Source of the DNA: an uncultured Lachnospiraceae bacterium
GTDB lineage: Bacteria; Bacillota; Clostridia; Lachnospirales; Lachnospiraceae
Direction of reading: 5' to 3'
DNA length: 37,711 bases
Assembly (NCBI GenBank): GCA_964424675.1
Contig: CAYRJT010000001.1
Span: forward strand, 2,343-40,053
Shown here piece by piece: positions 4,293 through 25,264 of the stretch (position 1 is its first letter; each line of letters begins with the position of its first letter). The position numbers and the translations under genes are program-made. The notes under the pieces were generated by a model. It was not told where the DNA came from and searched no databases. It saw only the letters and a list, made by a program, of their open reading frames with translations.

Positions 4293-5222
4293 CTACCCGA
4301 TTCGAGTCCCGGTCTTCCCATTGATACCGTCCTTGGCCTTTTCAAGCAAGGTAATGAGTGCAGTACGTCCGGACTTACTGGAGGCAAATTCAACACAGGC
4401 CTCCACCTTCGGGAGCATAGAGCCGGGAGCAAATTCTCCGGCTTTGATGTATTCCTTTGCTTCCTCAACCGTCATATGATCCAGTAATTTCTCATCCGTC
4501 TTGCGAAAATGAATCGCCACCTTCTCAACTGCAGTCAAAATAATCAGCATATCCGCATCCAGATCCTGCGCCATTCTGGCACTGCAGAAATCCTTATCAA
4601 TCACAGCACTGGCACCCTTCAGATGATTTCCCTGTCTGACAACAGGAATACCGCCACCGCCAGCCGCAATCACAACATCCCCGGCATTCACCAACGTCCG
4701 AATCGCATCAATTTCAACAATCTCAATCGGACGCGGAGAAGCAACCACACGCCGGTAACCCCTTCCCGAATCCTCTATCATCATATGACCATACTCCTTC
4801 GCAGCATAATCAGCCTGCTCCTTTGTCATAAAATGCCCCACAGGCTTCGTCGGATGCTCAAAAGCAGGATCATTTTCATCCACTCTGACCTGTGTAATCA
4901 TAGTCGTCACAGGCTTATTCAGCCCACGATTTTTCAACTCCTCACGCAGCGCATTCTGCAGATCATACCCAATATACGCCTGACTCATGGCAACACAAAC
5001 AGAAAGCGGTGTATTCGGCTGAGTCACATCCTCACGAGACAAAGCCGCCATCGCATTATTAATCATACCAACCTGCGGCCCATTCCCATGAGAAATAATC
5101 ACCTCATGCCCCTCCTCAATCAAATCCACAATTGATCTGGAGGTAATCTTAGCCGCCGTCATCTGCTCCGGAAGCGTATTTCCAAGCGCATTCCCCCCAA
5201 GCGCAATCACAATCCTACTCAT
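4293..5222 (-). CDS. arcC: Carbamate kinase (E. coli YqeA/ArcC type)
   Basis: MSRIVIALGGNALG start, HGNGPQVG, 309 aa. GGAGGG RBS. It is the last gene of the ygeY-ygeW operon. Confidence 0.9.
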   Translation of the reverse strand: MSRIVIALGGNALGNTLPEQMTAAKITSRSIVDLIEEGHEVIISHGNGPQVGMINNAMAALSREDVTQPNTPLSVCVAMSQAYIGYDLQNALREELKNRGLNKPVTTMITQVRVDENDPAFEHPTKPVGHFMTKEQADYAAKEYGHMMIEDSGRGYRRVVASPRPIEIVEIDAIRTLVNAGDVVIAAGGGGIPVVRQGNHLKGASAVIDKDFCSARMAQDLDADMLIILTAVEKVAIHFRKTDEKLLDHMTVEEAKEYIKAGEFAPGSMLPKVEACVEFASSKSGRTALITLLEKAKDGINGKTGTRIG

Positions 5223-5339
5223 ACAAAACCCTCCATAAGCACATTCCCTAACACATATCCACTAAAGTGCAATTATAACCCTATTCACACACAGTCCTTC
5301 CATAAGCAAAGCCTTCCCGGTCGTCCCAGAACCACCCCT

Positions 5340-6530
5340 TTATCTCTTCCGAGGCTTAGCTTCATCCTCCAACCTCTTAAGCAGCCCCGCCGGATCCTCA
5401 AACTTAGCCAGGAAAATCATAGCCGCAATCACATAAGGCTTAAAACTAGCCTGCTTATAAAGCGGGGTACGATACCGGTCAAACACAGACCCGTCAACCT
5501 CACCTTCCTCACAGCTGACCCCTGAAATATCAGCCGGTAAACAATGCAGATAAAGCGCCTTACCGTCCTTCGTAGACTTCATTAACTCCTCAGAACAAGT
5601 CCAGTCCTTATGCGTTGCATTCTGAGCAAGCAGTTCCTTCTCCAGCTTGTTAATACCATCAAAATCACCCTTACCATACAGATTCGTACGCTTCTCCATA
5701 GCAGCAAACGGAGCCCAGCTCTTCGGATACACAATATCCGCATCCTGAAAGGCCTCCGCCATATGATTTGTCTTTGTAAAGGAACCACCCGTAGCTGCCG
5801 CATTCTTTCTGGCAACCTCTTCACATTCCGGCATAATCTCATACCCTTCCGGATGAGCCAGTACGACATCCATACCAAAACGCGTCATCAGACCAATGAC
5901 ACCCTGCGGAACAGATAACGGCTTTCCATAAGAAGGAGAATAAGCCCAGGACATGGCGACCTTCTTACCCTTCAGATTCTCCACACCGCCAAATTCATGA
6001 ATGACATGCAGCATATCCGCCATACACTGCGTAGGGTGGTCAATATCACACTGCAGGTTCACAAGCGTCGGAATCTGCTCCAATACACCATCCTGATAAC
6101 CCTCACGAACCGCATTGGATACATTGTGCATATAAGCATTACCCTTACCAATATACATATCATCCCGGATACCAATGACGTCTGCCATAAAGGAAATCAT
6201 ATTGGCTGTCTCACGCACCGTCTCGCCATGTGCAATCTGAGACTTTCCTTCATCCAGATCCTGCACCTCGAGGCCCAGCAGATTACATGCCGATGCAAAT
6301 GAAAAACGCGTTCTTGTAGAATTGTCACGGAACAGGGAAATACCAAGTCCGCTTTCAAAAACCTTGGTGGAAATATTGTTCTTTCTCATATAACGCAGAG
6401 CGTCTGCAACTGTGAACACGGCCTCCAGTTCATCATCCGTCTTCTCCCAGGTCAGAAAAAAATCATTTTGATACATCTCTTTGAAATTCAGTTTGTTCAG
6501 TTTATCGATATACATCTGTAATGTTTCCAT
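5340..6530 (-). CDS. ygeW: YgeW-type (knotted) carbamoyltransferase
   Basis: 396 aa, the same length as E. coli YgeW. It is recognisably collinear with YgeW: FRDNSTRTRFSF, DEGKSQIAHGETVRETANMISF, NLQCDIDHPTQCMAD, WAYSPSYGKPLSVPQG, HCLPADISGVSC. An AGGAG RBS sits in the 12-nt gap after the ygeY stop. Confidence 0.9.
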   Translation of the reverse strand: METLQMYIDKLNKLNFKEMYQNDFFLTWEKTDDELEAVFTVADALRYMRKNNISTKVFESGLGISLFRDNSTRTRFSFASACNLLGLEVQDLDEGKSQIAHGETVRETANMISFMADVIGIRDDMYIGKGNAYMHNVSNAVREGYQDGVLEQIPTLVNLQCDIDHPTQCMADMLHVIHEFGGVENLKGKKVAMSWAYSPSYGKPLSVPQGVIGLMTRFGMDVVLAHPEGYEIMPECEEVARKNAAATGGSFTKTNHMAEAFQDADIVYPKSWAPFAAMEKRTNLYGKGDFDGINKLEKELLAQNATHKDWTCSEELMKSTKDGKALYLHCLPADISGVSCEEGEVDGSVFDRYRTPLYKQASFKPYVIAAMIFLAKFEDPAGLLKRLEDEAKPRKR

Positions 6531-6542
6531 ATGTGTTCTCCT

Positions 6543-7736
6543 TTATTTGCAATACAATGTCGGCATAGCAGCATAAACAGCAGCGCATCTTACGAGGTCT
6601 TCTTTCCAGGTACGTTCATTTGGTGCATGTGCCTGTGCTTCCTTGCCGGGGCCAAAGCCAATACAAGGAATCCCGAAACGTCCCATAATCGAAACACCAT
6701 TGGTAGAGAAGGTCCACTTATCAACGACCGGTTCCCCATACATACCCTGATAGGATTCTACCATAGCCTTGGTAGCCGGATGGTCAGAAGGGATGACCCA
6801 AGTCGGGAAGTAGCAGTCTGTCGGATAAACTAGACCGGTATAGCTTGGACGGTCATATTTGTACATAGATACCTCGGCCTGATATTTCTGAACCGTAGGT
6901 AAATTACGGATTTCCTGCAGAGCAGATTCATATGTCTCGCCGTCAGTCAGTCGTCTGTCAATTGAGATGGCACACATATCAGCAACTGCACAGCGTGAAG
7001 GAGAAGTGAAGAAGATCTCAGACACAGCCAGCGTACCCTTGCCCAGAAATGCATTGTCGAGCAGCTTATCATTTAGTGCACGTACCTCCTGTAAAATGTC
7101 ACCCATCTTATAAATTGCATTGTCGCCACGCTCCGGTGCAGAACCGTGACAGGAAACACCCTGTACCTCCACACGGATTTCCATACGTCCGCGCTGTCCG
7201 CGATAGATATGTCCGTCGGTAGGCTCTGTAATCACTACAAATTCCGGCTTTACCTTGTCTTCATTGATGATGTACTGCCAGCAGAGACCGTCACAATCCT
7301 CCTCTTGAACCGTACCGGTTACTAAAACCGTATATTTGTCAGAGAGAAGACCGAGATCTTTCATAATCTTAGCTCCATAGACGGAGGAAACAAGACCACC
7401 AAGCTGATCAGAGGTACCACGTCCGCCGATTTCAGTCTCTGTCTCATAACCCTCATACGGATCAAACTCCCAGTTGGAGCGGTTGCCGATGCCGACATTG
7501 TCAATGTGCGCATCATAGGCAATCAGCGTAGAGCCGGTTCCCATATATCCAAGTACATTGCCCATCGGATCGATTTCTACTTTATCAAACCCAACCTTTC
7601 TCATTTCTTCAGCAATTCTGTCAATGTGTCCTTTTTCTTCACAGCTTTCCCCCGGAATGCGAACGAGGTCTCGCAAGAACTTTGTCATATCCTGCTCGTA
7701 TTGTTCAGCCGCTGCTTTGATTTTGGTAAAATCCAT
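6543..7736 (-). CDS. ygeY: YgeY-type M20 peptidase/deacylase (selenium-metabolism-linked hydrolase family)
   Basis: Collinear with E. coli YgeY: [92 protein letters not shown] lies 7 nt before the ATG at 7736. The track start at 7787 has no RBS. Confidence 0.9.
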
Positions 7737-7823
7737 ATGTATTCCTCCTCTTTGATTATTGACCGTTTTTACAAGTTTGATTTTCATAACCGATCAATCA
7801 TACCTTATTTGGTTCATTACATT

Positions 7824-8513
7824 TTACTTGTTTATATCAACATAACTATACAAAGTATATTTGGATATATTAAAATACTTCGATACCTTATCGCCGGATT
7901 TGGTAATCAAAAAGGCTCCGGCATCATTTAAGAAATTGATTGCTCTGATTTTATCCTCCTTCGACATCAATGCCACCGGAACACCAATCAGATCTACAGA
8001 CTGCTTAATCAATTCATCCAGCAGTTCATTGACATCCTTCGTGATGCGGCTGGGCGCTTCCTTCTTCTCCTCATCCTCGGGACAGGAAATCAGAGAAGAA
8101 ATCGACCGGTCAATGGCAAGCAGATTCGTAATGTCATAATTGATGGCAAGAATATAACGAACGGCACCGGTCTCATCCTGAATGAAGAGCGTACTGGATT
8201 TGAGAATTCTGCCACTGTCGGTCTGTGTCAGGTATGCCAGCCGGTCAACAGGATGCTCGGTGTGATGGGAAATTGTATCCAGAACAATCGGAGACGGCCC
8301 GCCACCGACTTCCCGGTTACTGATGTGTCCGTTTTCAATATGTACAATGGAATGATCCATATTGGCAAGTGCCAGATCATGAATCACAACCTCACAATTA
8401 TTTCCGAACTGTGCCGCCAGTCCTACGGCTAATTGCTTTAATATTGTCAAGGTAGCAGCTTCATTATCCAAAAAATCATCTCCCTTAATTACGAAATTAT
8501 CATTTTGCGTCAT
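7824..8513 (-). CDS. YheO/DauR-like transcriptional regulator (PAS-like sensor domain plus C-terminal HTH)
   Basis: The C-terminal part DKIRAINFLNDAGAFLITKSGDKVSKYFNISKYTLYSY is the YheO-type HTH. The N-terminal 130 aa resemble the YheO PAS-like domain. It lies 87 nt upstream of ygeY on the same strand. Confidence 0.7.
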   Translation of the reverse strand: MTQNDNFVIKGDDFLDNEAATLTILKQLAVGLAAQFGNNCEVVIHDLALANMDHSIVHIENGHISNREVGGGPSPIVLDTISHHTEHPVDRLAYLTQTDSGRILKSSTLFIQDETGAVRYILAINYDITNLLAIDRSISSLISCPEDEEKKEAPSRITKDVNELLDELIKQSVDLIGVPVALMSKEDKIRAINFLNDAGAFLITKSGDKVSKYFNISKYTLYSYVDINK

Positions 8514-8543
8514 TTATCCGTAAATGAGCAGTTTCTACTTATT

Positions 8544-8571
8544 ATCATAGCATAGTAAAGGAGAATTGCAA
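8544..8571 (-). promoter_or_regulatory. Candidate sigma-A promoter of the YheO-like regulator: TTGCAA, 16-nt spacer, TATGAT
   Basis: On the minus strand the -35 TTGCAA corresponds to 8566-8571 and the -10 TATGAT to 8544-8549. Confidence 0.45.
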
Positions 8572-8620
8572 GACAAATTACAAAAAGATTTAGCACTAAA
8601 AAATATTTTTATTCTATTCA

Positions 8621-8694: not shown

Positions 8695-10170
8695 ATGATC
8701 GATTTAACGAGAAATGAACAGGCACTTGAGAAAAATATAGAAAAGGCAAAGGAAAAGAATATTATCATTCCGACCATTGCTCAGATGAAGAATCCCGATT
8801 TGATACCAGACGAGATCAAAGAGAAGCTGAAAAATGTTGGTCTGTGGGATGTCAATCCGTTGAATCTCTTTAGAATATCATGGAAGAATGAGCAAAAGGA
8901 AAGCGGAGGTCTATTTGGCGGCAGCAATTATATCGTACTTCCGTCAGAACTCACCGGTGTGAAGGCGAAGATCATCTGTTTGATTGGGAAATGGTTCCCG
9001 ACAGGCTGTCATAAGGTTGGTGCTTCCTTTGGATGTCTTGTACCAAGACTGATCACAGGACAATTTGATACGACTCATCATAAAGCAGTCTGGCCATCTA
9101 CTGGCAATTACTGCCGTGGCGGAGCATTCAACTCCAAGCTTTTAGGTGCAGAGTCCATCGCAATCCTGCCAGCTGAAATGAGCAAGGAAAGATTTGAATG
9201 GCTTCAAAGCATTGCAGGAGAGGTCATTGCAACCCCAGGCTGTGAGAGCAACGTAAAGGAAATCTTTGATAAGACCTGGGAGCTGAAGACAACGAGAAAG
9301 GATGTACTGATCTTCAACCAGTTTGAGGAGATGGGCAATTATTTATGGCATTATAATGTGACAGGAAGCGCAATAGCAGATGCCTATGAAGAAATGAAGC
9401 AGCCAGGCGACAGATTCGCAGGAGCAGTCTTCACATCTGGTTCAGCAGGCACAATGGCATCCGGCGATTATTTAAAGGAAAAATACCCAACTGCTAAGCT
9501 TGGTGTTGGTGAAGCACTGCAGTGTCCTACATTATTAAACAACGGATTTGGCGGACACCGAATCGAAGGCATCGGTGACAAGCATGTGCCGTGGATTCAC
9601 AACGTAAAAAATACAGATTTAGTCATTGATATTGATGATGAGGACAGCCAGAAGCTGATTCGATTCTTAAATGAGCCAATCGGCAAAGAATATCTTGTAA
9701 AGGAGCTGGGTGTCAGTCCTGAATTTGTAGAGTATCTTAGCTACTTTGGCATTTCAGGGATTGCCAATATGCTATGTGCAATTAAGATGGCGAAGTACTA
9801 TGAGATGACAGAGCATGATGTAATTGCAACTGTTATGACGGACTCTGTTTCTATGTACGGCTCTAGAATTAAGGAGCTGCAGGAGGAGAATGGTGCCTAT
9901 ACATCTACAATGGCCGCAGTGGACTATGCAAAGCACATTGCATCCATCAAGACTGACAATATGCAGGAGCTGACCTACATCGACCGCAAGAGAGTACATA
10001 ATCTGAAGTACTACACCTGGGTAGAGCAGCAGGGCAGAACCGCTGAAGAGCTGAATGCACTCTGGTATGATGATGAGCACACATGGGGTGCTGTCCGCAG
10101 AGAAGCAGGAGCGATTGATGAACTGATTAATGAATTCAATGAACGTACAGGGCTGCTTAAGGACCTGTAA
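8695..10170 (+). CDS. Fold-type-II (Trp-synthase-beta superfamily) PLP-dependent enzyme of unknown specificity, 491 aa
   Basis: Candidate PLP lysine in FPTGCHKVGASFG. STGNYCRGGA and the Gly-rich loop FTSGSAGTMASG are typical of the PALP fold. There are long N- and C-terminal extensions. It is not collinear with YgeX, cysteine synthase or ThrC as far as I can judge by eye. Confidence 0.7.
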   Translation: MIDLTRNEQALEKNIEKAKEKNIIIPTIAQMKNPDLIPDEIKEKLKNVGLWDVNPLNLFRISWKNEQKESGGLFGGSNYIVLPSELTGVKAKIICLIGKWFPTGCHKVGASFGCLVPRLITGQFDTTHHKAVWPSTGNYCRGGAFNSKLLGAESIAILPAEMSKERFEWLQSIAGEVIATPGCESNVKEIFDKTWELKTTRKDVLIFNQFEEMGNYLWHYNVTGSAIADAYEEMKQPGDRFAGAVFTSGSAGTMASGDYLKEKYPTAKLGVGEALQCPTLLNNGFGGHRIEGIGDKHVPWIHNVKNTDLVIDIDDEDSQKLIRFLNEPIGKEYLVKELGVSPEFVEYLSYFGISGIANMLCAIKMAKYYEMTEHDVIATVMTDSVSMYGSRIKELQEENGAYTSTMAAVDYAKHIASIKTDNMQELTYIDRKRVHNLKYYTWVEQQGRTAEELNALWYDDEHTWGAVRREAGAIDELINEFNERTGLLKDL

Positions 10171-10179
10171 ATCCATATA

Positions 10180-10316: not shown

Positions 10317-11660
10317 ATGAAAAACAAAAGAGTTCATCTATCATCTGCCCGGATGATAGTATTAGGATTTATGGGTGTAATAGCCGTCGGGAGTATCTTA
10401 TTAATGCTGCCTGTTTCGGCAAACAGTGGAAAGAGCACCCCCTTTTTGGATGCTGTTTTTACAGCGGTTTCTGCAGTCTGCGTGACCGGACTGGTTGTAC
10501 AGGACACAGCCAGCTACTGGTCGGGGTTCGGTCAGGCTGTTATTCTGCTTCTGATTCAGATAGGTGGGATGGGCGTTATTACCATTGCAGTGTTTATTGC
10601 AATTCTATCAGGAAAGAAAATAGGCTTGATGCAAAGAAGTACAATGCAGGAGGCCATTTCAGCGCCTAATATGCGTGGAATTGTTAAACTGACACACTTT
10701 ATATTAACCATCGCATTTGTCTCAGAAGCGCTTGCTGCAGTCATTATGATTCCCACCTTCTGTCAAAAGGTTGGTCTGCTGAAAGGCTGCTGGTATGCAC
10801 TGTTTCATGCTGTGTCCGCCTTTTGCAATGCAGGTTTTGATCTTATGGGCTCCGTACTTCCTTATTCTTCGTTGACCGGGTTTCGAGGCAGTTCAATTAT
10901 CAACTTTGTGATCATGTTTCTGATTATATGGGGAGGTATTGGCTTTTTAACGTGGGATGATATATGGAACCACAGATTCCATATAAGGTATTTTAGGATG
11001 CAGAGCAAGGTGATTCTGATTACGACAATTGTGCTGATTTTCATTCCTGCAATTTATTTTTATTTCTTTGAATTTTCAAGAGGGGTGTGGGGAGAGATTT
11101 CGGTAAAGGAACGATTTCTTGCCTCTGCTTTTCAGGCAGTGACACCCAGAACAGCTGGCTTTAATACAGTAAATTTAATAGAGATGAGAGATACGAGTAA
11201 GATTTTGACCATTGTATTGATGCTGATTGGCGGATCTCCGGGATCTACAGCCGGTGGTATCAAAACAACGACACTTGCAGTGCTGGTTGCTTCTACAATT
11301 GCAGTATTTCGAAGAAATGAGGATGCACACTATTTTGGCAGACGGATTTCTGTGGAGACAGTTCGTTCGGCATCTGCCGTTTTTATGATGTATATATGTT
11401 TGTTTATGACCGGAGGAATTGCCATCAGTCTTATGGAAGAGCTGCCAATTCTGGACTGTTTATTTGAGACAGCCTCGGCGATAGGAACGGTTGGCTTAAC
11501 ATTAGGCATTACACCAGGATTGGGAACAGCCTCCCGCCTGATTTTGATCAGCCTTATGTATCTAGGCAGAGTGGGTGGACTGACATTGATCTTTGCTGCT
11601 ACATCGGGTACAAAACCTTGCGGCTCTAGGTATCCGCAGGAGAAAATAACAGTGGGGTAA
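10317..11660 (+). CDS. ktrB: Ktr/Trk-family potassium uptake protein, membrane subunit (KtrB/TrkH)
   Basis: 447-aa polytopic membrane protein with the repeated selectivity-filter-like motifs VTGL, IQIGGMGV, CNAGF and RTAGFNT, plus GGSPGSTAGGIKTTT. Confidence 0.85.
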   Translation: MKNKRVHLSSARMIVLGFMGVIAVGSILLMLPVSANSGKSTPFLDAVFTAVSAVCVTGLVVQDTASYWSGFGQAVILLLIQIGGMGVITIAVFIAILSGKKIGLMQRSTMQEAISAPNMRGIVKLTHFILTIAFVSEALAAVIMIPTFCQKVGLLKGCWYALFHAVSAFCNAGFDLMGSVLPYSSLTGFRGSSIINFVIMFLIIWGGIGFLTWDDIWNHRFHIRYFRMQSKVILITTIVLIFIPAIYFYFFEFSRGVWGEISVKERFLASAFQAVTPRTAGFNTVNLIEMRDTSKILTIVLMLIGGSPGSTAGGIKTTTLAVLVASTIAVFRRNEDAHYFGRRISVETVRSASAVFMMYICLFMTGGIAISLMEELPILDCLFETASAIGTVGLTLGITPGLGTASRLILISLMYLGRVGGLTLIFAATSGTKPCGSRYPQEKITVG

Positions 11661-11668
11661 TATTGATT

Positions 11669-12316
11669 ATGAAAAGTGTATTATTGATTGGATTAGGACG
11701 TTTCGGACGTCAGATTGCGAAAAAACTGGATGAGCTCAATCACCAGGTTATGGCTGTGGATATACAGGAGAAAAGGGTAAATGCTGTATTGCCTTATGTC
11801 ATGAATGCCCAGATTGGGGATAGTACAGACCCAGATTTTATTGGCTCTCTTGGCATTCGTAACTTTGATGTCTGCATTGTAGCCATAGGAGATCATTTTC
11901 AGAGTTCTATGGAAACCTCTTCTCTGCTGAAGGAGCAGGGGGCAAAGCTGGTGGTGGCGAGAGCAAGCAGTGAAGTACATGCCAAATTTTTGAAGAAAAT
12001 TGGCGCTGACAAGGTGGTATATCCGGAGGAACAGGTTGCATCGTGGACAGCAATACGCTACACATCGGATCATATCCTGGATTATATTGAACTGGATCAG
12101 AATCACGGAATTTTTGAACTTTCAGTTCCGGAAGGCTGGGTGGATAAAACGGTCGGACAGCTGGATATTCGTAAAAAATACAATGTTAATATTATGGGTA
12201 CACGACAGAATGCAACATTGAATCTTGTGGTGAATCCGAGTACAAAGCTGACCGGTGACCTGACGATGCTGGTGTCCGGAAACGTAAGAGATGTTCATAA
12301 ATGCTTTCATATTTAG
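11669..12316 (+). CDS. ktrA: Ktr/Trk-family potassium uptake protein, peripheral NAD-binding subunit (KtrA/TrkA)
   Basis: MKSVLLIGLGRFGRQIAKKL Rossmann motif followed by a TrkA-C-like C-terminus. Alternative TTG start at 11663. Confidence 0.85.
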   Translation: MKSVLLIGLGRFGRQIAKKLDELNHQVMAVDIQEKRVNAVLPYVMNAQIGDSTDPDFIGSLGIRNFDVCIVAIGDHFQSSMETSSLLKEQGAKLVVARASSEVHAKFLKKIGADKVVYPEEQVASWTAIRYTSDHILDYIELDQNHGIFELSVPEGWVDKTVGQLDIRKKYNVNIMGTRQNATLNLVVNPSTKLTGDLTMLVSGNVRDVHKCFHI

Positions 12317-12331
12317 AAGAAAGGCGATACA

Positions 12332-12421
12332 ATGGAAGTAATCATTTTCATATCCTTTATAGGGATGGGGATTGCCGGTTATTATATGATTAAGAAACTG
12401 GTACAATTCCTGAACGAATAA
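12332..12421 (+). CDS. Possible 29-aa single-pass membrane peptide (MEVIIFISFIGMGIAGYYMIKKLVQFLNE)
   Basis: An ORF too short for the track, found by reading the 125-nt gap between ktrA and the kinase gene. It has a hydrophobic core and a weak GAAAGG RBS. Support is positional only. Confidence 0.3.
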   Translation: MEVIIFISFIGMGIAGYYMIKKLVQFLNE

Positions 12422-12441
12422 TCAAATGATTAGATCCGGAG

Positions 12442-13569: not shown

Positions 13570-13593
13570 GAAATTCGTTAGGGAGGTGCAGAT

Positions 13594-17319: not shown

Positions 17320-17464
17320 AAGTATACTTCCTCTCTTTCTGTTATAAACGATGCAGCTAATGTGATAGCTTTCGTTGACGATTATAACACAAAAGAATCT
17401 GTTCGTCATTACCAAATTTAACATATCTGTAACATTTAATTTTTTTTTTAGAAATACAAATAAG

Positions 17465-17493
17465 TTGTCAGAAATCTCACAAAATGGTATGAT
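17465..17493 (+). promoter_or_regulatory. Candidate sigma-A promoter of the ssnA operon: TTGTCA, 17-nt spacer, TATGAT with TG at the extended -10 position
   Basis: The -35 is at 17465-17470 and the -10 at 17488-17493, preceded by TGG. The leader to the ATG at 17555 is about 60 nt, too short for a riboswitch. Confidence 0.55.
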
Positions 17494-17554
17494 AATAAAT
17501 AGAAAGTTCATGCGAAAACACGGGAATATTTAATGGAATAAGGGAGGTTTTGCC

Positions 17555-18886
17555 ATGTTACTAATTGGAAACGGAAGAATGATTACACGGGATGCTAAGG
17601 CTCCATTTATAGAAAACGGTGCAGTGGTAACAGAGGGACCGAAAATCATAGAAACAGGAGACTACACAGTACTAAAGAAAAAATATCCGGATGCGGAACT
17701 GATCGATGCCAAAGGTGGCGTGATCATGCCTGCATTGATCAATACACATGAGCATATTTATTCGACGATGGCAAGAGGGCTTGCAATCAAAGGGTACAGT
17801 CCGGACGGCTTTCTGGAAATCCTGGATGGCATGTGGTGGAACATAGACAGACACCTGACGCTGGAGCAGACCGGTCTGAGTGCAGAGTCTACCTATATAG
17901 ACTGCATCAAGAACGGTGTCACAACAGTTTTTGATCATCATGCCAGCTATGGTTCCATTCGGGATTCCTTATTCAAAATAGAAGAAGCAGCAAAAAAGAC
18001 AGGAATCAGAAGCTGTCTCTGTTTTGAAATCTCGGATCGTGACGGGGAAGTCAAGATGCGGGATGCCATTTTAGAAAATGAGGCATTTTGCAGACATGCA
18101 CTGTCTGATGATACAGATATGATAGCCGGCATGATGGGACTGCATGCATCCTTTACCCTTTCGGATGACACATTGGCACTGTGCGCGGAGCATAAGCCGG
18201 ATGGGGTTGGATATCATATTCATGTAGCAGAGGGAATCGAGGATCTGTATGATTCTCTGAAGAAGTATGGAAAACGGATCATCGACAGACTGATGGATCA
18301 CGGCATATTAGGAGAGAAGACGCTTACGGCACACTGTATCTATATCAATGAACATGAGATGGATGTCCTGAAGGAAACCGGAACGATGGTTGTACATAAT
18401 CCAGAGTCTAATATGGGAAATGCATGCGGCTGTCCTCCGACGATGAGGATCATACAAAAGGGAATCCTGACCGGGCTTGGAACAGACGGCTATACACATG
18501 ACATGCTGGAATCCTACAAGGTGGCCAATATCCTGCATAAGCATCATCTGTGCGATCCGGGAGCCGCCTGGGCAGAGATCCCGCAGATGCTGTTTGAGGG
18601 CAACGCGCAGATTGCAGGACGTTATTTTAAAAGACCGCTGGGCGTGCTGAAGGAGGGTGCGGCAGCGGATGTAATCATTACAGATTATATCCCGATCACT
18701 CCAATGAATGCGGACAATCTCAATGGACATATCTTATTTGGAATGAGTGGACGCAGTGTTGTTACAACGGTAGCGAATGGACAGGTGCTGATGAAGGACA
18801 GATGTCTGACTCAGATTGATGAGGAAGAGACACTGGCACATGTCAGAGAAGCAGCAAAGAAATTAGCAAATTCCATCAATGTATAA
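17555..18886 (+). CDS. ssnA: SsnA-type amidohydrolase (chlorohydrolase/aminohydrolase superfamily)
   Basis: 443 aa, collinear with E. coli SsnA: MPALINTHEHIYS, WWNIDRHL, FDHHAS, HIHVAEG, LTAHCIY, VHNPESNM, LGTDG. GGGAGG RBS. Confidence 0.9.
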   Translation: MLLIGNGRMITRDAKAPFIENGAVVTEGPKIIETGDYTVLKKKYPDAELIDAKGGVIMPALINTHEHIYSTMARGLAIKGYSPDGFLEILDGMWWNIDRHLTLEQTGLSAESTYIDCIKNGVTTVFDHHASYGSIRDSLFKIEEAAKKTGIRSCLCFEISDRDGEVKMRDAILENEAFCRHALSDDTDMIAGMMGLHASFTLSDDTLALCAEHKPDGVGYHIHVAEGIEDLYDSLKKYGKRIIDRLMDHGILGEKTLTAHCIYINEHEMDVLKETGTMVVHNPESNMGNACGCPPTMRIIQKGILTGLGTDGYTHDMLESYKVANILHKHHLCDPGAAWAEIPQMLFEGNAQIAGRYFKRPLGVLKEGAAADVIITDYIPITPMNADNLNGHILFGMSGRSVVTTVANGQVLMKDRCLTQIDEEETLAHVREAAKKLANSINV

Positions 18887-18899
18887 AGGAGGCGGCTAT

Positions 18900-21800
18900 A
18901 TGGGCGACAGAATGACACCGATCCCATTTTCAAAACTCGTGGATCAGATACTGACAGAAAAGCAACAGGGAAGCATATTCGGAATTCGCGATTTATATGT
19001 GGCGAAGCAGAATCATACCCTCTCTTTATTTGGAGAGAAGATGGAAACACCATTTGGCCCGGCAGCGGGACCGCATACACAGCTTGCTCAGAATATTATA
19101 GCAGCTTATGCGGCCGGAGCCCGTTTCTTTGAACTGAAGACGGTCCAGAAGCTGGACGGTGAAGATCTGCCAGTCAGCAAGCCATGTATCAAGGCAGATG
19201 ATGAGGGTTATAACGTAGAATGGTCTACTGAGTTAACAGTACAGCAGGCATTTGATGAATATGTCAAAGCATGGTTCGCTATCAAGCTTATGGCCAAAGA
19301 ATTCGGAATCGGTGCTATGGATGGCTTTATTTTTAATATGAGTGTCGGTTATGATCTGGATGGTATCAAGCTGAAAAAGATTGATGATTTTATGGAGGGT
19401 CTTAAGGACGCTTCTGACACACCGATATTCCGGGAATGCCGTGCATTTACACTGGAGCATCTGGAACTGTTCACGGATATTACCGAAGAGGATGTGCAGT
19501 CCATTTCTCCTCATATCTGTACGTCAGCAACGCTGTCTACCCTGCATGGCTGTCCGCCACAGGAGATCGAACGTATTGCTACCTATTTAATGAAGGAAAA
19601 GCATCTGAATACATTTATCAAATGCAACCCAACTCTGCTCGGCTATGAATTTGCCAGACGTACACTGGATGATATGGGATATGATTATGTATCGTTTGGT
19701 GAGTTTCATTTCCAGGATGATCTGCAGTATGCCGATGCAGTACCGATGCTGAGTCGCCTGACGGAGCTTGCAGAGCAGGAGAAGCTGGAGTTTGGAGTTA
19801 AGCTCACCAATACATTTCCGGTGGATATCAAGGCAGAAGAATTACCGGGACAGGAAATGTATATGTCAGGACGTGCCCTGTATCCACTTTCAATCGCATT
19901 GGCAGCTAAATTATCAGAGGAATTCAAAGGAAAGCTGCGGATTTCGTATTCCGGAGGCGCAGATTATCATAATATCAAGAAAATATTCGAGACGGGTATC
20001 TGGCCGATCACGATGGCGACGACTCTGTTAAAGCCCGGCGGATACCAAAGGATGACACAGATCGGTGATCTGCTCGGACAAGGACATGAAGGCTATCCGG
20101 AAGATCACGGTATCGACGTAGAGAAGGTCAAGGCACTGGCAAAGAACGCAAGACGGGATAGAAATCATAGAAAACCTGTCAAGCTGCCGGTTTCACGCAA
20201 GATGGAGCGCAAGGTTCCACTGATTGACTGCTTTGTGGCACCCTGCAGAGAGGGTTGTCCGATTCATCAGGATATCACTGCCTATATGGAACTGGTATCA
20301 CGCGGCGAATATGCCAAGGCGCTGTATGTGATTATGGAAAAAAATCCGCTTCCTTATATAACGGGCACAATCTGTGCGCACAGATGTATGAGTAAATGTA
20401 CCAGAAACTTCTATGAGGAGCCGGTACATATCCGGAAAATGAAGCTTCGTGCGGCACGTGGCGGCTACGATGCAGTACTGGCAGGACATTCTGAGGGAAC
20501 GAAGGACAAAGGCAGAGTGGCCATCATCGGCGCAGGACCGGCAGGTATCTCGGCAGCTTATTTTCTGGCTCGTGCAGGCATGGATGTAACGATTTTTGAA
20601 AAGAAAGAGGTTCCAGGTGGAGTGGTCAGACATGTGATACCGGAGTTTAGGATCTCATCAGAGGATGTGATGAAGGATATCGCCTTTGTGGAAAAGCTGG
20701 GAGTGCAGATTGAGGTAAATTCGCCGGTTCATACGATTGATGAATTGAAAGAAAAGGGCTTTAGAAAGATCATCGTGGCGATCGGTGCAGGCAAGGAGGG
20801 CATCCTGTCATTGAAGTCAGGCTCTTCAATCAGTGCAGTTACATTTCTCGAGGATTTCAAGAATACAGAAGGCAGTATGGATATTGGCAGTCAGGTCGTA
20901 GTTGTCGGAGGCGGAAACACAGCGATGGATACGGCACGTGCTGCGATCCGTGTAGATGGTGTGGAGAAGGTGACGCTGATCTATCGCAGGACAAAGAGAT
21001 ATATGCCGGCGGATGAGGAAGAATTGCTGCTCGCGATAGAGGAAGGCGTGGAGTTCATGGAACTGCTGACCCCTGTCAGCTTTGAGAACGGAACACTGAC
21101 CTGTCACCGGATCGAGCTCGGAGAACCGGATGCAACCGGTCGCCGGAGTCCGGTCGAGACAGAAGAGGTGATAGAGATACCGGCAGATGTCGTGATTGGT
21201 GCAGTGGGAGAACACATTGACGATGACTTCTATAAATCAAACAATATCATGATGACGTATGGAGGAAAACCAGCGGTAGATGCCGAAACCCTGCAGAGTT
21301 CGGTTCCGGGTGTTTATATCATTGGAGATGGACGTGGTGGTCCGGCTACGGTTGTTGAGGCAATTGCAGATGCAACCAGAGTATCAGAGGCAATTTTATC
21401 AGAACGGATGTCACGGGATGTCAATGAGGAGAAGGATTTACGGGATATTTATGAGAAACACGGTGTCATTTGTGATTCCATAGATGGAGCTGTGAATACG
21501 ACGACAACGGAGCAAAGGGCAAAAGCCGAGTATGAGAGATGCTTGTCCTGCTTTGCTGTTTGCGAGGCCTGTGTGGAGGCATGCCCGAATCGAGCCAACA
21601 TATCTGTTCGTATTCCGGGTAAAGAAAAATCGCAGATTCTTCATATCGACCAGAGATGTAATGAATGCGGCAACTGCAGAACATTTTGCCCGTATGACAG
21701 TGCGCCGTATCTCGATAAGCTGACGTTATTTGCGACGGAAGCAGATTTTGATCACAGTAAGAATCAGGGATTTGTACTGCTGGATCCCGATAAACAGATA

Positions 21801-21923
21801 TTGAAACTGCGGCTGGGCGAACGTCATTATACGATAGAAGGCTTTGAAGCAGAAAGTCATGTGGATCCGCAGATTATGAATCTCATAGAGACCGTGTATC
21901 ACAAATATAGATATTTATTCTAA
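18900..21923 (+). CDS. ygfK: YgfK-type large Fe-S flavoprotein oxidoreductase (annotated in E. coli as putative selenate reductase subunit)
   Basis: The N-terminal region is a DPD/DHOD-like barrel. Two dinucleotide sites are present, VAIIGAGPAGISAAYFLARAG and VVVVGGGNTAMDTARAA. Cys clusters are CREGCPIHQD, CLSCFAVCEACVEACP and CNECGNCRTFCP. AAGGAGG lies before the ATG at 18900. Confidence 0.9.
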   Translation: MGDRMTPIPFSKLVDQILTEKQQGSIFGIRDLYVAKQNHTLSLFGEKMETPFGPAAGPHTQLAQNIIAAYAAGARFFELKTVQKLDGEDLPVSKPCIKADDEGYNVEWSTELTVQQAFDEYVKAWFAIKLMAKEFGIGAMDGFIFNMSVGYDLDGIKLKKIDDFMEGLKDASDTPIFRECRAFTLEHLELFTDITEEDVQSISPHICTSATLSTLHGCPPQEIERIATYLMKEKHLNTFIKCNPTLLGYEFARRTLDDMGYDYVSFGEFHFQDDLQYADAVPMLSRLTELAEQEKLEFGVKLTNTFPVDIKAEELPGQEMYMSGRALYPLSIALAAKLSEEFKGKLRISYSGGADYHNIKKIFETGIWPITMATTLLKPGGYQRMTQIGDLLGQGHEGYPEDHGIDVEKVKALAKNARRDRNHRKPVKLPVSRKMERKVPLIDCFVAPCREGCPIHQDITAYMELVSRGEYAKALYVIMEKNPLPYITGTICAHRCMSKCTRNFYEEPVHIRKMKLRAARGGYDAVLAGHSEGTKDKGRVAIIGAGPAGISAAYFLARAGMDVTIFEKKEVPGGVVRHVIPEFRISSEDVMKDIAFVEKLGVQIEVNSPVHTIDELKEKGFRKIIVAIGAGKEGILSLKSGSSISAVTFLEDFKNTEGSMDIGSQVVVVGGGNTAMDTARAAIRVDGVEKVTLIYRRTKRYMPADEEELLLAIEEGVEFMELLTPVSFENGTLTCHRIELGEPDATGRRSPVETEEVIEIPADVVIGAVGEHIDDDFYKSNNIMMTYGGKPAVDAETLQSSVPGVYIIGDGRGGPATVVEAIADATRVSEAILSERMSRDVNEEKDLRDIYEKHGVICDSIDGAVNTTTTEQRAKAEYERCLSCFAVCEACVEACPNRANISVRIPGKEKSQILHIDQRCNECGNCRTFCPYDSAPYLDKLTLFATEADFDHSKNQGFVLLDPDKQILKLRLGERHYTIEGFEAESHVDPQIMNLIETVYHKYRYLF

Positions 21924-21936
21924 ATGAGGGATGAAA

Positions 21937-23313
21937 ATGGCAGACAGATATTTGATTGCTGGAGGACAAATTATCTCCGGCGGTGGCAGCAGGACGGCCG
22001 ATATTCTGATCGATAACGGCAGGATCGAAAAAATAGGTGAGGATCTGGCAGATATGACTGCAAGACGTATTGATGCGTCCGGCAGGCTGATCTTCCCCGG
22101 CTTTATTGATGCACATACACACTTTGATCTGGAAGTGTCCGATACAGTGACGGCGGATGACTTTGAATCAGGGACAAAGGCGGCCATAGCAGGAGGAACC
22201 ACCTGTATCATTGATTTTGCGACACAGTACAAGAAGGAAACATTATCAGAGGCTCTGGCAACATGGCACAAAAAAGCCGATGGTGTCTGCTCCTCAGATT
22301 ATGCATTTCATATGGCGATATCTGATTGGAATGAGAATACCGCAGAGGAAATCAAGGAGATGTTTGCAGGCGGAGTGACATCCTTCAAATTGTATATGAC
22401 TTATGACATCAGAGTCAGCGATGGCGTGATTTATGATATTCTGAAGAAAATGAAAGCAGTGGGCGGTATTGTAGGTGTGCACTGTGAGAACAATGATCTT
22501 ATCAACAGACTGGCAGGAGAGCAAAAATCTGCCGGAGATTACTCACCGGCGGCACATCCGAAGTCACGTCCGGCCTGTGCCGAGGCTGAGGCGATACATC
22601 GTCTGCTGACAATTGCCAGAGTGGTTGATGTACCGGTCATGATTGTTCATCTTTCTTCGGAGGAGGGCTATGAAGAGGTTTGCCGCGCGAGAGAAAAAGG
22701 ACAAAAGGTGTACACGGAGACCTGTCCGCAGTATCTGATTCTGGATGAGAGCAGATACCAGCTGGAGGATTTTGAAGGTGCGAAATATGTATGCTCGCCG
22801 CCTCTCAGGAGCAGACAGGATAAGGAATGTCTCTGGCAGGCTGTCAGGGACGGGCAGATCGATACGATATCAACAGATCATTGTTCCTTTACCATGGCAC
22901 AGAAAAGGATGGGGATCAAAGATTTTACAAAGATTCCAAACGGCATGCCCGGAGTGGGCAACAGACCGCAGCTGATGTATACCTATGGAGTGCTGGAGGA
23001 CAGAATGACAGTGTCCCAGATGTGCAGACTACTGTCAGAGAATCCGGCAAAGCTTTATGGCATGTATCCGCGAAAGGGCTGTATTGCAGAGGGCTCAGAT
23101 GCGGATATTGTCATCTGGAATCCGGCTTACAGAAGAACCATCACAGCCGAGGGACAACTGTATCAGACTGATTATAACCCCTATGAGGGGATCAAGGTCA
23201 GAGGCATGGCAGAGAGGGTGTTTTTAAGAGGCATGCCGGTAGCAGAAAAGGGCGAGATAACAAAACCGAATACAGACTGCTATATCAAGCGGGAGGAAGG
23301 AATCAGGATATGA
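21937..23313 (+). CDS. hyuA: D-hydantoinase / dihydropyrimidinase family cyclic amidohydrolase (HyuA-like)
   Basis: PGFIDAHTHFDL, FKLYMTY (carbamylated-Lys region), VHCEN, VHLSS, DHCSF. About 458 aa like E. coli HyuA. Alternative ATG at 21931. Confidence 0.85.
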   Translation: MADRYLIAGGQIISGGGSRTADILIDNGRIEKIGEDLADMTARRIDASGRLIFPGFIDAHTHFDLEVSDTVTADDFESGTKAAIAGGTTCIIDFATQYKKETLSEALATWHKKADGVCSSDYAFHMAISDWNENTAEEIKEMFAGGVTSFKLYMTYDIRVSDGVIYDILKKMKAVGGIVGVHCENNDLINRLAGEQKSAGDYSPAAHPKSRPACAEAEAIHRLLTIARVVDVPVMIVHLSSEEGYEEVCRAREKGQKVYTETCPQYLILDESRYQLEDFEGAKYVCSPPLRSRQDKECLWQAVRDGQIDTISTDHCSFTMAQKRMGIKDFTKIPNGMPGVGNRPQLMYTYGVLEDRMTVSQMCRLLSENPAKLYGMYPRKGCIAEGSDADIVIWNPAYRRTITAEGQLYQTDYNPYEGIKVRGMAERVFLRGMPVAEKGEITKPNTDCYIKREEGIRI

Positions 23314-24365
23314 AACTGATCAAAACAGAAGATGCTGTCGGGCATGTACTGTGTCATGATATCACGCAGATCATCAAAGGTGTGACCAAGGATGCTGTAT
23401 TCCGTAAAGGGCATGTGGTTCAGAAGGAGGATATTCCTGTGTTGCTGTCTGTGGGCAAGGAACATCTGTATGTATGGGAAAAGAGAGAGGACATGCTTCA
23501 TGAGGACGAAGCAGCTCTGATTTTATATGAGATCTGTGTGGGCAATCATATGCATGCCGGTGAGATCAAGGAAGGTAAGATCGAGCTGATTGCGGACTGT
23601 GATGGCCTGCTAAAGGTGGATAGTGAACGTCTGCGTGCAATCAACATGGTCGGTGAGATGATGATTGCGACCAGACACGGCAATACAACCGTGCACAAAG
23701 GAGATAAGCTGGCAGGAACCCGGGTAATTCCACTGATGATTGAAAAGAAGCGTATGGAACATGCTCGTGGTATTGCGGAGGAATATAAGAAAAACAGCGG
23801 TGGACTTCCGATGCTGGATGTGAAACCTTTTTTGCACAAGAAGGTGGGAATCGTGACGACCGGTTCCGAAGTTTATCATGGACGTATTGAAGATACATTT
23901 ACGCCGGTCATTTTAGACAAACTGGCACAGTTTGATACGGAGATTATTGGTCAGAAAATTTGTGATGATGATTCGGCAGGGATTACAGCAGCCATTCAGG
24001 AATGGATACAGCAGGGCGCTGATCTGGTCATCTGTACCGGCGGTATGAGTGTAGATCCGGATGACAGGACTCCGCTTGCAATCAAAAATGCATGCAGCAA
24101 GGATCAGAAAGGACATGTTGTAAGCTATGGTGCGCCGGTACTGCCGGGGGCGATGTTTCTGCTTGCATATAACGATGCCGGGATTCCGGTGATCGGACTT
24201 CCGGGCTGTGTGATGTATGCGAAAAGAACGATTTTTGATCTGATTCTGCCGAGACTGATGGCAGACGAGAAACTGACTGCTGCTGATATCAATTGTCTGG
24301 GAGAGGGAGGCCTGTGTCTGTCCTGCGAGGTCTGTACCTTCCCGAACTGTGGTTTCGGCAAATAG
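23310..24365 (+). CDS. Molybdopterin-binding protein (MoeA-N-like segment plus MoaB/MogA-type MoCF domain) with a Cys-rich tail
   Basis: The KTEDAVGHVLCHDI opening is MoeA-like. VGIVTTGSEV...ADLVICTGGMSVDPDDRTP is the MoCF-binding fold. The tail is CLGEGGLCLSCEVCTFPNC. The start overlaps the hyuA stop (ATGA at 23310-23313). Confidence 0.7.
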   Translation: MKLIKTEDAVGHVLCHDITQIIKGVTKDAVFRKGHVVQKEDIPVLLSVGKEHLYVWEKREDMLHEDEAALILYEICVGNHMHAGEIKEGKIELIADCDGLLKVDSERLRAINMVGEMMIATRHGNTTVHKGDKLAGTRVIPLMIEKKRMEHARGIAEEYKKNSGGLPMLDVKPFLHKKVGIVTTGSEVYHGRIEDTFTPVILDKLAQFDTEIIGQKICDDDSAGITAAIQEWIQQGADLVICTGGMSVDPDDRTPLAIKNACSKDQKGHVVSYGAPVLPGAMFLLAYNDAGIPVIGLPGCVMYAKRTIFDLILPRLMADEKLTAADINCLGEGGLCLSCEVCTFPNCGFGK

Positions 24366-24415
24366 CCGTGGAGTATGTCAGAGTTCATAAATATGGAGCA
24401 AATGGAGCAAAATGA

Positions 24416-25264
24416 ATGAGTATCGCACAAAGTAAGTTTAAGGATATTATGATACAGCAGGATGAACTGATCGTATGCGGTGGAGGACATGTTTCCATTC
24501 CGATTATCAAAATAGGAAAGATGCTCGATTTCAGTGTAACCGTTTTGGAGGACAGACCACTTTATGCTGATCACGTAAGAGCCGCAGGTGCCGACCGCGT
24601 GATCTGTGATACGTTTAGGGACGCACTTTCACAGATTGATGGCGGATCAAATGTATATTTTGTCGTTGTGACACGAGGGCACAGGTATGATATGGAATGT
24701 CTGCGCTCTATTTTTGAAAAGAAGTATGCTTATGCAGGCATGATGGGGTCGAGAGTACGATCCGGAGAGGTCAGAAAAGCATTGGCAGCAGAGGGCATAT
24801 CGGAGGTTGAGATTGCAAAGTTGCATAGTCCGATCGGACTGCCGATCGGGGGAGAGACCCCTGAGGAAATAGCGGTTTCGGTGATGGCTGAGATTGTACA
24901 GGTCAGAGACCAGATTCGCAAGGAGAAGAAAGCTGATGGCTATACACATGAGATCCTGCAGGCACTTCTTGCGGATGACGACAGAAGCAGATGTCTGGTG
25001 ACGATCATTTCCAGAAAAGGCTCTGCACCCAGAAGCGTCGGAACCAAAATGGTGGTTTTCGAAGACGGAGTCTGTACAGGGACGATTGGCGGAGGCTGTG
25101 TAGAGGCACAGGTGATGCAGGAAGCGCTGCATATGATGCGAGGAGCAGCGGAAGAAAGCAGGACGCTTAAAATCAACATGCTGCCGGAGCAGGCTGAGGA
25201 GGAAGGGATGGTCTGCGGAGGGATTGTAGAGATTTCACTTGATGTGATTGATCTGAAAGTATAA
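24416..25264 (+). CDS. XdhC/CoxI-family molybdenum-hydroxylase maturation protein with apparently reversed domain order
   Basis: Residues 17-165 match the XdhC Rossmann-like C-domain (LIVCGGGHVSIP, VTRGHRYD, GMMGSRVR, HSPIGLPIGGETPEEIAVSVMAEIV). Residues about 185-280 match the XdhC_CoxI N-domain (LVTIISRKGSAPRSVGTKMVV, GTIGGGCVEAQV, MVCGGIVEI). Confidence 0.7.
   Translation: MSIAQSKFKDIMIQQDELIVCGGGHVSIPIIKIGKMLDFSVTVLEDRPLYADHVRAAGADRVICDTFRDALSQIDGGSNVYFVVVTRGHRYDMECLRSIFEKKYAYAGMMGSRVRSGEVRKALAAEGISEVEIAKLHSPIGLPIGGETPEEIAVSVMAEIVQVRDQIRKEKKADGYTHEILQALLADDDRSRCLVTIISRKGSAPRSVGTKMVVFEDGVCTGTIGGGCVEAQVMQEALHMMRGAAEESRTLKINMLPEQAEEEGMVCGGIVEISLDVIDLKV

Follow-up and report, generated by a model that had tools for sequence, protein, structure and literature searches.

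A rearranged, ygeX-less cluster of putative reductive uric acid pathway genes in an uncultured Lachnospiraceae bacterium

Introduction

Uric acid is broken down anaerobically by gut bacteria through 2,8-dioxopurine. The enzymes of this pathway were reconstituted in 2025 by Liu et al. (preprint 10.1101/2025.04.24.650524, later in Nat Microbiol) and Li et al. (10.1101/2025.05.19.654654, later in Life Metab), with enzymes from E. coli, C. sporogenes, and C. difficile. In the first step, 2,8-dioxopurine is formed from urate, by XdhAC in C. sporogenes and by XdhD-YgfM in E. coli; XdhAC was shown by Liu et al. to be a selenium-dependent 2,8-dioxopurine dehydrogenase (DOPDH). The requirement of the pathway for the selenium cofactor (SelD) was published in the same work. 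YgfK then reduces 2,8-dioxopurine. SsnA opens the ring to give ureidomethyl-hydantoin, from which HyuA forms 2,3-diureidopropionate (Li et al. 10.1101/2025.05.19.654654). YgeW, with phosphate, yields carbamoyl phosphate, which YqeA turns to ATP (E. coli enzymes; Liu et al. 2025). YgeY subsequently gives 2,3-diaminopropionate (DAP), and YgeX converts DAP to pyruvate and ammonia, the carbon yield being drawn from pyruvate. The sole disagreement between the two studies is which ureido group is taken off by YgeW. Here, we describe a 37,711-nucleotide stretch of an uncultured Lachnospiraceae genome (contig CAYRJT010000001.1 of assembly GCA_964424675.1; hereafter the window), in which genes for six of these enzymes are found. 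The window is best read as a copy of this now-known pathway, carried by a Lachnospiraceae supercluster whose genes have been rearranged; what sets it apart is the exit step, where ygeX is absent and genes for two other pyridoxal-5-phosphate (PLP) enzymes are present.

The E. coli genes are arranged as ygeW-ygeX-ygeY-hyuA-yqeA ... ygfK-ssnA-ygfM-xdhD. The window shares orthologues of six of these proteins, and the same reaction sequence is expected. YqeB, YqeC, and a MocA-like protein (the last under its model cut-off) are likewise encoded nearby in the window species. The gene order differs from that of E. coli, the cluster is split by 9 kb, and neither ygeX, the sigma-54 regulator YgeV, nor a UacT/XanQ permease is in reach; the regulator is YheO-like. 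Whereas E. coli uses XdhD-YgfM, the putative entry enzyme of the window species consists of one FeS-Mo polypeptide (TIGR03311 type) and lacks the YgfM FAD subunit.

A second comparison is with the C. sporogenes and canonical Lachnospiraceae clusters (Liu et al., Cell 2023, Nat Microbiol 2025). Shared with them are an XdhAC-type DOPDH candidate, YgfK, SsnA, HyuA, YgeW, YgeY, SelD dependence, ATP formation by carbamate kinase, and the divergent two-operon layout. The canonical layout was drawn from 80 related loci, which were obtained by a YgfK scan over species-representative genomes and gene-mapped with E. coli and window proteins: [permease]-arcC-ygeW-ygeY-ygeX-yheO is divergent from ssnA-ygfK-(fused FeS-Mo hydroxylase, XdhAC)-hyuA. 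The XdhAC-type gene is within 10 kb of ygfK in 64 of the 80 loci, whereas it is about 30 kb from ygfK in the window species. In addition, the window differs in having two other PLP enzymes, and no ygeX, in the divergent gap.

Two further systems should be mentioned. In the C. difficile variant, UacX takes the place of YgfK, and UacY, a D-aminoacylase-type hydrolase, that of YgeW and YqeA, whereas YgfK, YgeW, and carbamate kinase are all retained in the window; this variant is a published precedent for non-orthologous enzymes filling single pathway steps (Li et al. 10.1101/2025.05.19.654654). The arginine deiminase pathway follows the same energy logic, in that a carbamoyl group is transferred to phosphate and ATP is then formed by carbamate kinase, as noted by Liu et al. 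In the window, the donor would be a urate-derived ureido-propionate, and the transferase is of the knotted YgeW type, not ornithine carbamoyltransferase (OTC).

Results

Six core genes and their operons

Family calls were made by comparing NCBIfam profile scores with the curated cut-offs, and domains were assigned with Pfam. Identities to E. coli K-12 proteins (protein set L081) were obtained by BLASTP. The six core genes and the regulator gene are the following.

4293-5222, minus strand: carbamate kinase, YqeA/ArcC type (TIGR00746, 379 bits against 358; 64% identity to E. coli YqeA)
5340-6530, minus strand: YgeW, knotted carbamoyltransferase (TIGR03316, 797 against 500; 66% identity to E. coli YgeW)
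6543-7787, minus strand: YgeY, M20 hydrolase (TIGR03526, 698 against 321.5; 71% identity to E. coli YgeY)
7824-8513, minus strand: YheO-like regulator with PAS_6 and HTH_22 domains (PF08348, PF13309)
17555-18886, plus strand: SsnA, amidohydrolase (NF005540, 664 against 444; TIGR03314, 601 against 455.5; 33% identity to E. coli SsnA)
18879-21923, plus strand: YgfK (DOPOR), Fe-S flavoenzyme (TIGR03315, 1416 against 835, full length; 44% identity to E. coli YgfK)
21931-23313, plus strand: HyuA, D-hydantoinase (TIGR02033, 566 against 393; 39% identity to E. coli HyuA)

All six core proteins score above the curated cut-offs; identity to their E. coli counterparts is 33-71% and extends over nearly the full length. 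The OTC and aspartate carbamoyltransferase models gave at most 123 bits on the YgeW ORF, far under their cut-offs, and the ArgE/DapE and dihydroorotase models scored well under their own on the window ORFs. The YgfK family corresponds to TIGR03315/IPR017701, and the SsnA family, the marker enzyme in Li et al. (10.1101/2025.05.19.654654), to TIGR03314/IPR017700. Since TIGR02033 also covers dihydropyrimidinases, the assignment of HyuA is based on this score together with the position of the gene right after ygfK. The TIGR03526 alignment of YgeY begins at residue 20 and contigs of the same species call a protein of 397 aa; the true start is probably near 7736 (397 aa).

The minus-strand operon runs from 8513 down to 4293 in the order yheO-like gene (first), ygeY, ygeW, and arcC, with the ygeW and carbamate kinase genes adjacent. 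The plus-strand operon starts with ssnA at 17555, which leaves 9.0 kb between the two operons. With gaps of 50 bases or less, it continues through ygfK, hyuA, a MoCF_biosynth gene, an XdhC-family gene, modB, a pair of ABC exporter genes, and the gene of a ModC-like ATPase. Most related loci have a homologue of the yheO-like gene between ygeX and ssnA. Promoter-like sites, as consensus matches alone, are present before ssnA and back to back in the yheO/PLP491 spacer (PLP491 is described below). A palindrome in the same spacer, ATTGCAAT, was considered as an operator and dropped: the window contains 4 copies, with 1.8 expected, and a count of 4 was reached in 12 of 100 shuffled sequences. The Rfam and tRNA scans of the window gave no match; this means that the window contains no tRNA gene and no riboswitch, including none for purines or the molybdenum cofactor.

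The core proteins are 55-98% identical to those of loci with the full canonical set. The loci nearest in YgfK are those of the unclassified bacterium S4R_St_43 (98%) and of three Lachnospiraceae metagenome-assembled genomes (79-91%), followed by Diplocloster (62-63%); the source species itself is represented by metagenome assemblies only.

These similarities strongly suggest that the six genes very probably encode the central steps of the 2,8-dioxopurine pathway in this uncultured Lachnospiraceae. The original prediction, made from the DNA letters, had assigned six ORFs at these positions to the YgeW, YgeY, carbamate kinase, SsnA, YgfK, and hydantoinase families, as distinct from ordinary OTC, ArgE, or dihydropyrimidinase relatives, on two opposed operons about 9 kb apart; the profile scores and coordinates agree with it throughout. 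Its placement of the set in anaerobic, selenium- and molybdenum-linked urate catabolism also matches the published pathway, as do ring reduction and opening by YgfK, SsnA, and HyuA and ATP formation through YgeW and carbamate kinase. Two of its statements on the chemistry have to be corrected. The chemistry was called largely unassigned, although every step was reconstituted in the two 2025 studies, and YgeY was placed before YgeW, whereas in the published order the phosphorolysis of 2,3-diureidopropionate by YgeW precedes YgeY.

Entry enzymes in the left flank

The surroundings of the window were followed on contigs of the same species, which were reached by exact-sequence look-ups of YgeW, a 144-aa ORF, and the flavin reductase; the left flank was extended further by an exact look-up of YedE. 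Exact look-ups of the window-end genes (glycerate kinase and the radical SAM protein) gave no match, and on the right side the same-species contigs stop just past glycerate kinase. A 27.5-kb contig shows 98.8% nucleotide identity to the window over 10.9 kb. The left flank was seen in three independent same-species assemblies, and the map reaches about 15.9 kb left of the window. The following genes were found there, the purine and selenium genes being 1.3-15.6 kb left of the window.

Left flank: glutamine synthetase and GNAT acetyltransferase
Left flank: XdhC-B-A (Mo subunit 46% identical to E. coli XdhA; NF043082, 1222 against 780)
Left flank: guanine-deaminase-like protein (356 against 375, slightly under the cut-off)
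Left flank: cysteine-desulfurase-family protein related to SclA (TIGR01977, 449 against 377; SclA model 416 against 525, under the cut-off)
Left flank: YedE (522 against 200)
Left flank: TusA and a YedF-like carrier
9.2-11.8 kb left of the window: 878-aa fused FeS-Mo hydroxylase, XdhAC type (TIGR03311, 1336 against 830)
Left flank: YqeB (333 against 220)
Left flank: YqeC (201 against 73)
Left flank: SelD (384 against 125)
Left flank: MocA-like protein (138 against 186, under the cut-off)

In canonical loci, ygfK or hyuA is followed by a gene to whose product the 878-aa hydroxylase is about 70% identical over the full length, and for this reason the hydroxylase is assigned to the XdhAC type. 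Thus, an entry enzyme of this type is absent from the window and present in the same-species flank; its regiospecificity (2,8-dioxopurine or xanthine) cannot be read from the sequence. The selenium-cofactor trait (SelD, YqeB, and YqeC) is also present in the flank, above the cut-offs. In an 88% relative, the XdhAC/SelD block directly adjoins arcC. Given the flank genes 1.3-15.6 kb to the left, the whole region is a predicted purine-catabolic supercluster of more than 50 kb.

Two PLP enzymes at the exit step

The E. coli proteins XdhA/B/C/D, YgfM, YgeX, XanQ, UacT, GhxQ, MocA, and YqeC gave no match in the window by tblastn, apart from a weak one of YgeX. This match is to the gene of a threonine-synthase-like protein, PLP423 (24% identity over 206 residues); the other PLP enzyme of the window, PLP491, was not matched by E. 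coli YgeX. Lachnospiraceae YgeX likewise had a single match in the window, at 24% to the PLP423 gene. These searches uphold the view that the window contains no hydroxylase subunit, no ygeX, and no purine permease. It had been supposed that the entry and exit steps are encoded elsewhere or by unassigned genes of the window. Neither is recognizable in the window, and the exit would fit two of these genes (8695-10170 and 14359-15630), which had not been singled out; the hydroxylases are not far away, being encoded 1.3-15.6 kb to the left in same-species contigs.

Furthermore, no ygeX was seen in the window or the left flank (about 16 kb), and none in L003 and L093, two of the relatives. The gene is present in 67 of the 80 related loci; among the 13 without it, only L003 shows ygeY. 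It stands beside ygeY in 65 of the 66 loci that bear ygeY and is missing in the window clade only. The spacer between the yheO-like gene and ygeY is 36 bases, which leaves no ygeX remnant. The two PLP genes of the gap are the following.

8695-10170, plus strand: PLP491, PLP enzyme with CysK/CBS fold (beta-substituted alanine synthase type), candidate exit enzyme (weak PALP/CysK matches)
14359-15630, plus strand: PLP423, threonine-synthase-like PLP enzyme with an N-terminal Cys4 (CxxC...CxxC) ribbon (PRK08197, 313.7 against 303)

PLP491 scores under the cut-off of every CysK/CysM/CBS model (for example, 78 bits against 351 and 65 against 510). In the alignment with CysK, Lys107 corresponds to the PLP lysine, and the STGN segment (135-138) corresponds to the Asn loop. 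Lys107, Ser135, and Gly137 are at least 90% conserved in an alignment extending down to 28% identity. The AlphaFold2 (AF2) model built from an alignment including 28-57% relatives has a pLDDT of 95; an earlier model from a shallow alignment (75-87% identity) reached 61 and was not used. The best matches of the model in the Protein Data Bank are beta-cyanoalanine synthase, CBS, O-acetylserine sulfhydrylases, and SbnA, with target-normalized TM values of 0.8-0.87. PLP491 has extra helical segments at the N- and C-termini. The family is well conserved, comprises approximately 340 clusters at 50% identity (E ≤ 1e-30), and is annotated just as "pyridoxal-5-phosphate-dependent protein subunit beta". 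PLP491 therefore has the CysK/CBS fold and represents a distinct family outside any named equivalog.

PLP423 matches solved threonine synthases with E values of 1e-59 to 1e-71. At the positions of Thr88, Ser155, and Arg160 (T. thermophilus ThrC numbering), which are common to the three aligned ThrCs, it has Ala, Ala, and Leu, respectively; within the family, the third is Leu or Met. We take these three residues to be the O-phosphohomoserine phosphate site, for which a literature check gave no confirmation. The STGNAAS and NPYL(S/M/L)EG segments are kept in all 56 PLP423 orthologues from the collected loci, and so are the three substitutions. The automatic ThrC annotation may be wrong for the PLP423 family.

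YgeX/DpaL is a PLP enzyme of fold-type II, as are both proteins of the window; neither of the two belongs to the YgeX family. It seems possible, as a tentative reading, that PLP491 and PLP423 carry out the exit step in place of YgeX; this role is inferred from the absence of ygeX. In the literature searched, neither a published alternative to YgeX nor a mention of PLP491 or PLP423 was found.

Genomic association of the PLP pair

A second set of loci was centered on PLP491. A metagenome scan with this protein gave 80 metagenomic loci with 65-77% identity, which were mapped by tblastn and ORF clustering. A YheO-type regulator is directly upstream of PLP491 on the same strand in 45 of the 68 loci with at least 1 kb upstream, and ygeY and ygeW are found upstream, divergent from PLP491, in 23 of the 42 with at least 4.5 kb upstream. 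Of the 80 loci, 51 also have a PLP423 orthologue. At least one purine-cluster gene is carried by 38 of the 48 loci with enough flank. In contrast to the ygfK-centered loci, YgeX was found within 10 kb in only one of the 80. In many metagenomic loci, PLP491 holds a cluster position neighboring that of YgeX.

Another difference concerns transport. The canonical clusters have an NCS2 (XanQ/UacT-like) permease where the PLP-type clusters often have a Bmp/PnrA-type ABC transporter, a possible alternative importer of purines or urate. Genes for a Bmp/PnrA-like binding protein, an ABC ATPase, and two permeases are located beyond arcC in six loci (L104, L114, L124, L130, L138, and L154).

In an uncultured Oscillospiraceae locus (L069), a PLP423 orthologue (59%) is directly upstream of, and divergent from, ssnA-ygfK-XdhAC, with no ygeY side in reach. 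This is a further link of the ThrC-like family to urate genes.

These associations might be explained by a widespread second form of the urate cluster, which we put forward with some reserve. In this form, YgeX would be replaced by PLP491 and PLP423 under a YheO-type regulator, often together with a Bmp/PnrA-type importer, and DAP or a mono-ureido precursor would be converted to pyruvate and ammonia, possibly by other chemistry or stereochemistry than that of YgeX. The lineage of the window would then be a canonical cluster that gained this module and subsequently lost ygeX. It should be mentioned that Li et al. (10.1101/2025.05.19.654654) used Pfam PF00291 as the neighborhood marker of YgeX. 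This marker cannot tell PLP491 and PLP423 from YgeX, so that earlier surveys relying on it would have counted them as YgeX.

Alternatives for the exit step

Several observations weigh against the reading of the pathway or of its exit step. No urate or purine permease was found in the window or the left flank (tblastn with E. coli XanQ, UacT, and GhxQ), and ygeX could lie elsewhere in the genome, outside the window and the left flank. PLP423 marginally passes the "threonine synthase" model PRK08197, by 10 bits. Among the 48 PLP491 loci with sufficient flank, 10 show no known purine gene nearby; two of these carry a Bmp/PnrA-type transporter, and one has a gene of the purine-nucleoside-phosphorylase family. 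The PLP pair and ygeX occur together in Diplocloster and in an 86% relative (L082), whereas in Candidatus Metalachnospira the pair is found after dapF and an aminotransferase gene, and purine genes are absent.

The left end of the window is to be added to these points. Bases 1-181 (approximately 62% GC) do not match the same-species contigs, to which the window is identical from base 182. Beyond this base, the contigs continue into an intact glutamine synthetase gene, the remainder of which is replaced by bases 1-181 in the window. On the minus strand, these bases read ...TRWHEDDLAGRL..., in an in-frame fusion to about codon 100 of glnA; this sequence is presumably a phage-terminase-type motif. 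Bases 1-181 derive either from a chimeric join in the assembly or from the insertion of a mobile element. Because they are foreign, adjacency of the left flank is established for the species and not for this assembly.

The main rival to the exit role of the PLP pair is that the pathway is ordinary and complete: ygeX and a purine permease gene would be located in other parts of the genome, and the pair would be amino-acid biosynthetic genes (threonine synthase and a cysteine synthase relative) that merely happen to be in the gap. This is a serious possibility, though a somewhat doubtful one. The similarity of PLP423 to solved ThrCs, its passing of PRK08197, the gene context in Candidatus Metalachnospira, and the coexistence of the pair with ygeX in Diplocloster and L082 all favor it; in addition, some published urate users hold pathway genes, such as that of carbamate kinase, at other loci. 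However, biosynthetic genes in a chance position would not readily account for the purine-cluster genes in 38 of 48 PLP491 loci or for the same-strand YheO-type regulator in 45 of 68. Nor does it agree with the distribution of YgeX, which is within 10 kb in 1 of 80 PLP491 loci against 65 of 66 ygeY-bearing loci centered on ygfK. At the level of the proteins, all PLP423 orthologues deviate at the three residues common to solved ThrCs, and PLP491 is far under every CysK/CysM/CBS cut-off.

A second, unlikely alternative is that the pathway ends at DAP. The cell would keep ATP and ammonia and excrete or otherwise use DAP, and no replacement of YgeX would be needed. A published C. sporogenes ygeX mutant still consumes urate, with accumulated DAP representing a significant portion of the urate used, and the lack of ygeX in the window and in about 16 kb of left flank is in line with such an end. 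However, the published pathway takes its carbon yield from pyruvate, and conserved PLP partners stand beside the cluster. DAP is toxic to bacteria, and this toxicity is relieved by YgeX/DpaL, which also speaks against DAP as the end product.

It is very improbable that the six enzymes act on another substrate, such as another oxopurine or a hydantoin, and resemble the urate cluster at the family level only: the position of the XdhAC-type gene outside the operon, unlike that in most relatives, and the lack of a urate permease in the window would fit this, but all six score as equivalogs well above the cut-offs, are 55-98% identical to proteins of full canonical loci, and have XdhAC-type and selenium-cofactor genes in the same neighborhood.

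Separation of the two operons

The distance between the starts of ygeY and ssnA is 1.45-5.45 kb, with a median of 2.3 kb, in the 66 related loci that have both genes, versus 9.77 kb in the window. In an 85% relative (L003), the gap contains only three genes, encoding PLP491, PLP423, and the DUF3048 protein, and the two PLP genes are adjacent. Besides the PLP genes, the gap of the window contains the following.

10317-14289, plus strand: TrkH and TrkA-like proteins (K+ uptake), KdpD-like histidine kinase, and KdpE-like response regulator (NCBIfam)
16213-17511, minus strand: DUF3048 protein, divergent from ssnA (PF11258, PF17479)

The Trk/two-component block between the two PLP genes is present in the same-species contigs and not in L003; it is a species-specific insertion outside the pathway. 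The DUF3048 gene is found at this position in L001 and L003 only, that is, in the window clade. The split of the gene set that had been pointed out is thus real as a gap. It is not a design of the pathway: the synteny with the 66 loci shows adjacent divergent operons, and the 9-kb separation is secondary, arising from successive lineage-specific insertions of the PLP genes, the Trk/two-component block, and the DUF3048 gene between operons that are adjacent and divergent in relatives.

Molybdenum genes behind hyuA and other genes

As had been predicted, the second operon runs on into molybdenum genes after hyuA.

23310-24365, plus strand: 351-aa protein with a C-terminal MoCF_biosynth (MoaB/MogA-like) domain (PF00994, 92 bits)
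24416-25264, plus strand: XdhC-family Mo-hydroxylase maturation factor (PF13478 at residues 18-160, then PF02625 at 188-244; two E. coli YqeB matches)
25273-25974, plus strand: ModB, molybdate ABC permease (TIGR02141, 235 against 182.6)
25976-29449, plus strand: two MsbA-like ABC exporter half-transporters (best matches under every curated cut-off)
29499-30620, plus strand: ModC/WtpC-like ABC ATPase, the end of the plus-strand run (TIGR02142, 201 against 285; WtpC, 214 against 440; both under the cut-off)

Homologues of the MoCF_biosynth protein, with 51-63% identity, are found in six related urate loci, in four of which (L067, L076, L077, and L079) there is an XdhC-like neighbor. In the XdhC-family protein, the XdhC_C Rossmann domain (18-160) precedes XdhC_CoxI (188-244), which is the inverse of the usual order. 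This permuted arrangement looks real, because homologues (35-52% identity) are found in seven related urate loci. The order of modB, the two exporter genes, and the modC-like gene is kept in L001 and L003. No gene for the substrate-binding protein ModA was found in the window.

Two groups of genes are located on either side of the pathway genes. The group on the left (1063-2453 and 2714-3769) includes a radical SAM protein similar to "rSAM mobile pair protein B" (318 bits, under the cut-off of 410); its gene overlaps a DUF5680 gene and adjoins that of a 351-aa P-loop/AAA-like protein. Together, these genes may form a small mobile or defense-type cassette between the urate operon and glnA. On the right, after the molybdenum genes (31272-33965), there are genes for an sce7726-family protein (Phage_P4_cII on same-species contigs), a 122-aa ORF, a PRK06851-like P-loop protein, and a short Ogt-like DNA-binding protein. 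These appear unconnected with purine catabolism.

Discussion

The arrangement described above suggests the following route in the window species. Urate would be 6-dehydroxylated to 2,8-dioxopurine by the selenium-dependent XdhAC-type Mo hydroxylase of the left flank, and 2,8-dioxopurine would be reduced by YgfK. SsnA would open the pyrimidine ring to give ureidomethyl-hydantoin, and opening of the hydantoin by HyuA would lead to 2,3-diureidopropionate. Phosphorolysis of this compound by YgeW would transfer one carbamoyl group to phosphate, from which carbamate kinase would form ATP, and the second ureido group would be hydrolyzed by YgeY, leaving DAP. PLP491 and PLP423 might then act on DAP or a mono-ureido precursor, by beta-elimination or by beta-replacement, so as to yield pyruvate and ammonia.

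Host urate is lowered by this pathway, and efforts to engineer it into probiotics are under way. The fate of the purine carbon depends on the last step: it is either passed on to pyruvate and short-chain fatty acids or lost from the cell as DAP. Should ygeX simply be present at another genomic locus, the window would be an ordinary version of the known cluster in rearranged form. If, on the other hand, many gut Clostridia end the pathway with other PLP enzymes, gene surveys of urate degraders would need another marker. In that case, the question of the stereochemistry of the ureido and DAP intermediates would gain a new experimental handle, and pathway engineering would gain an alternative exit module.

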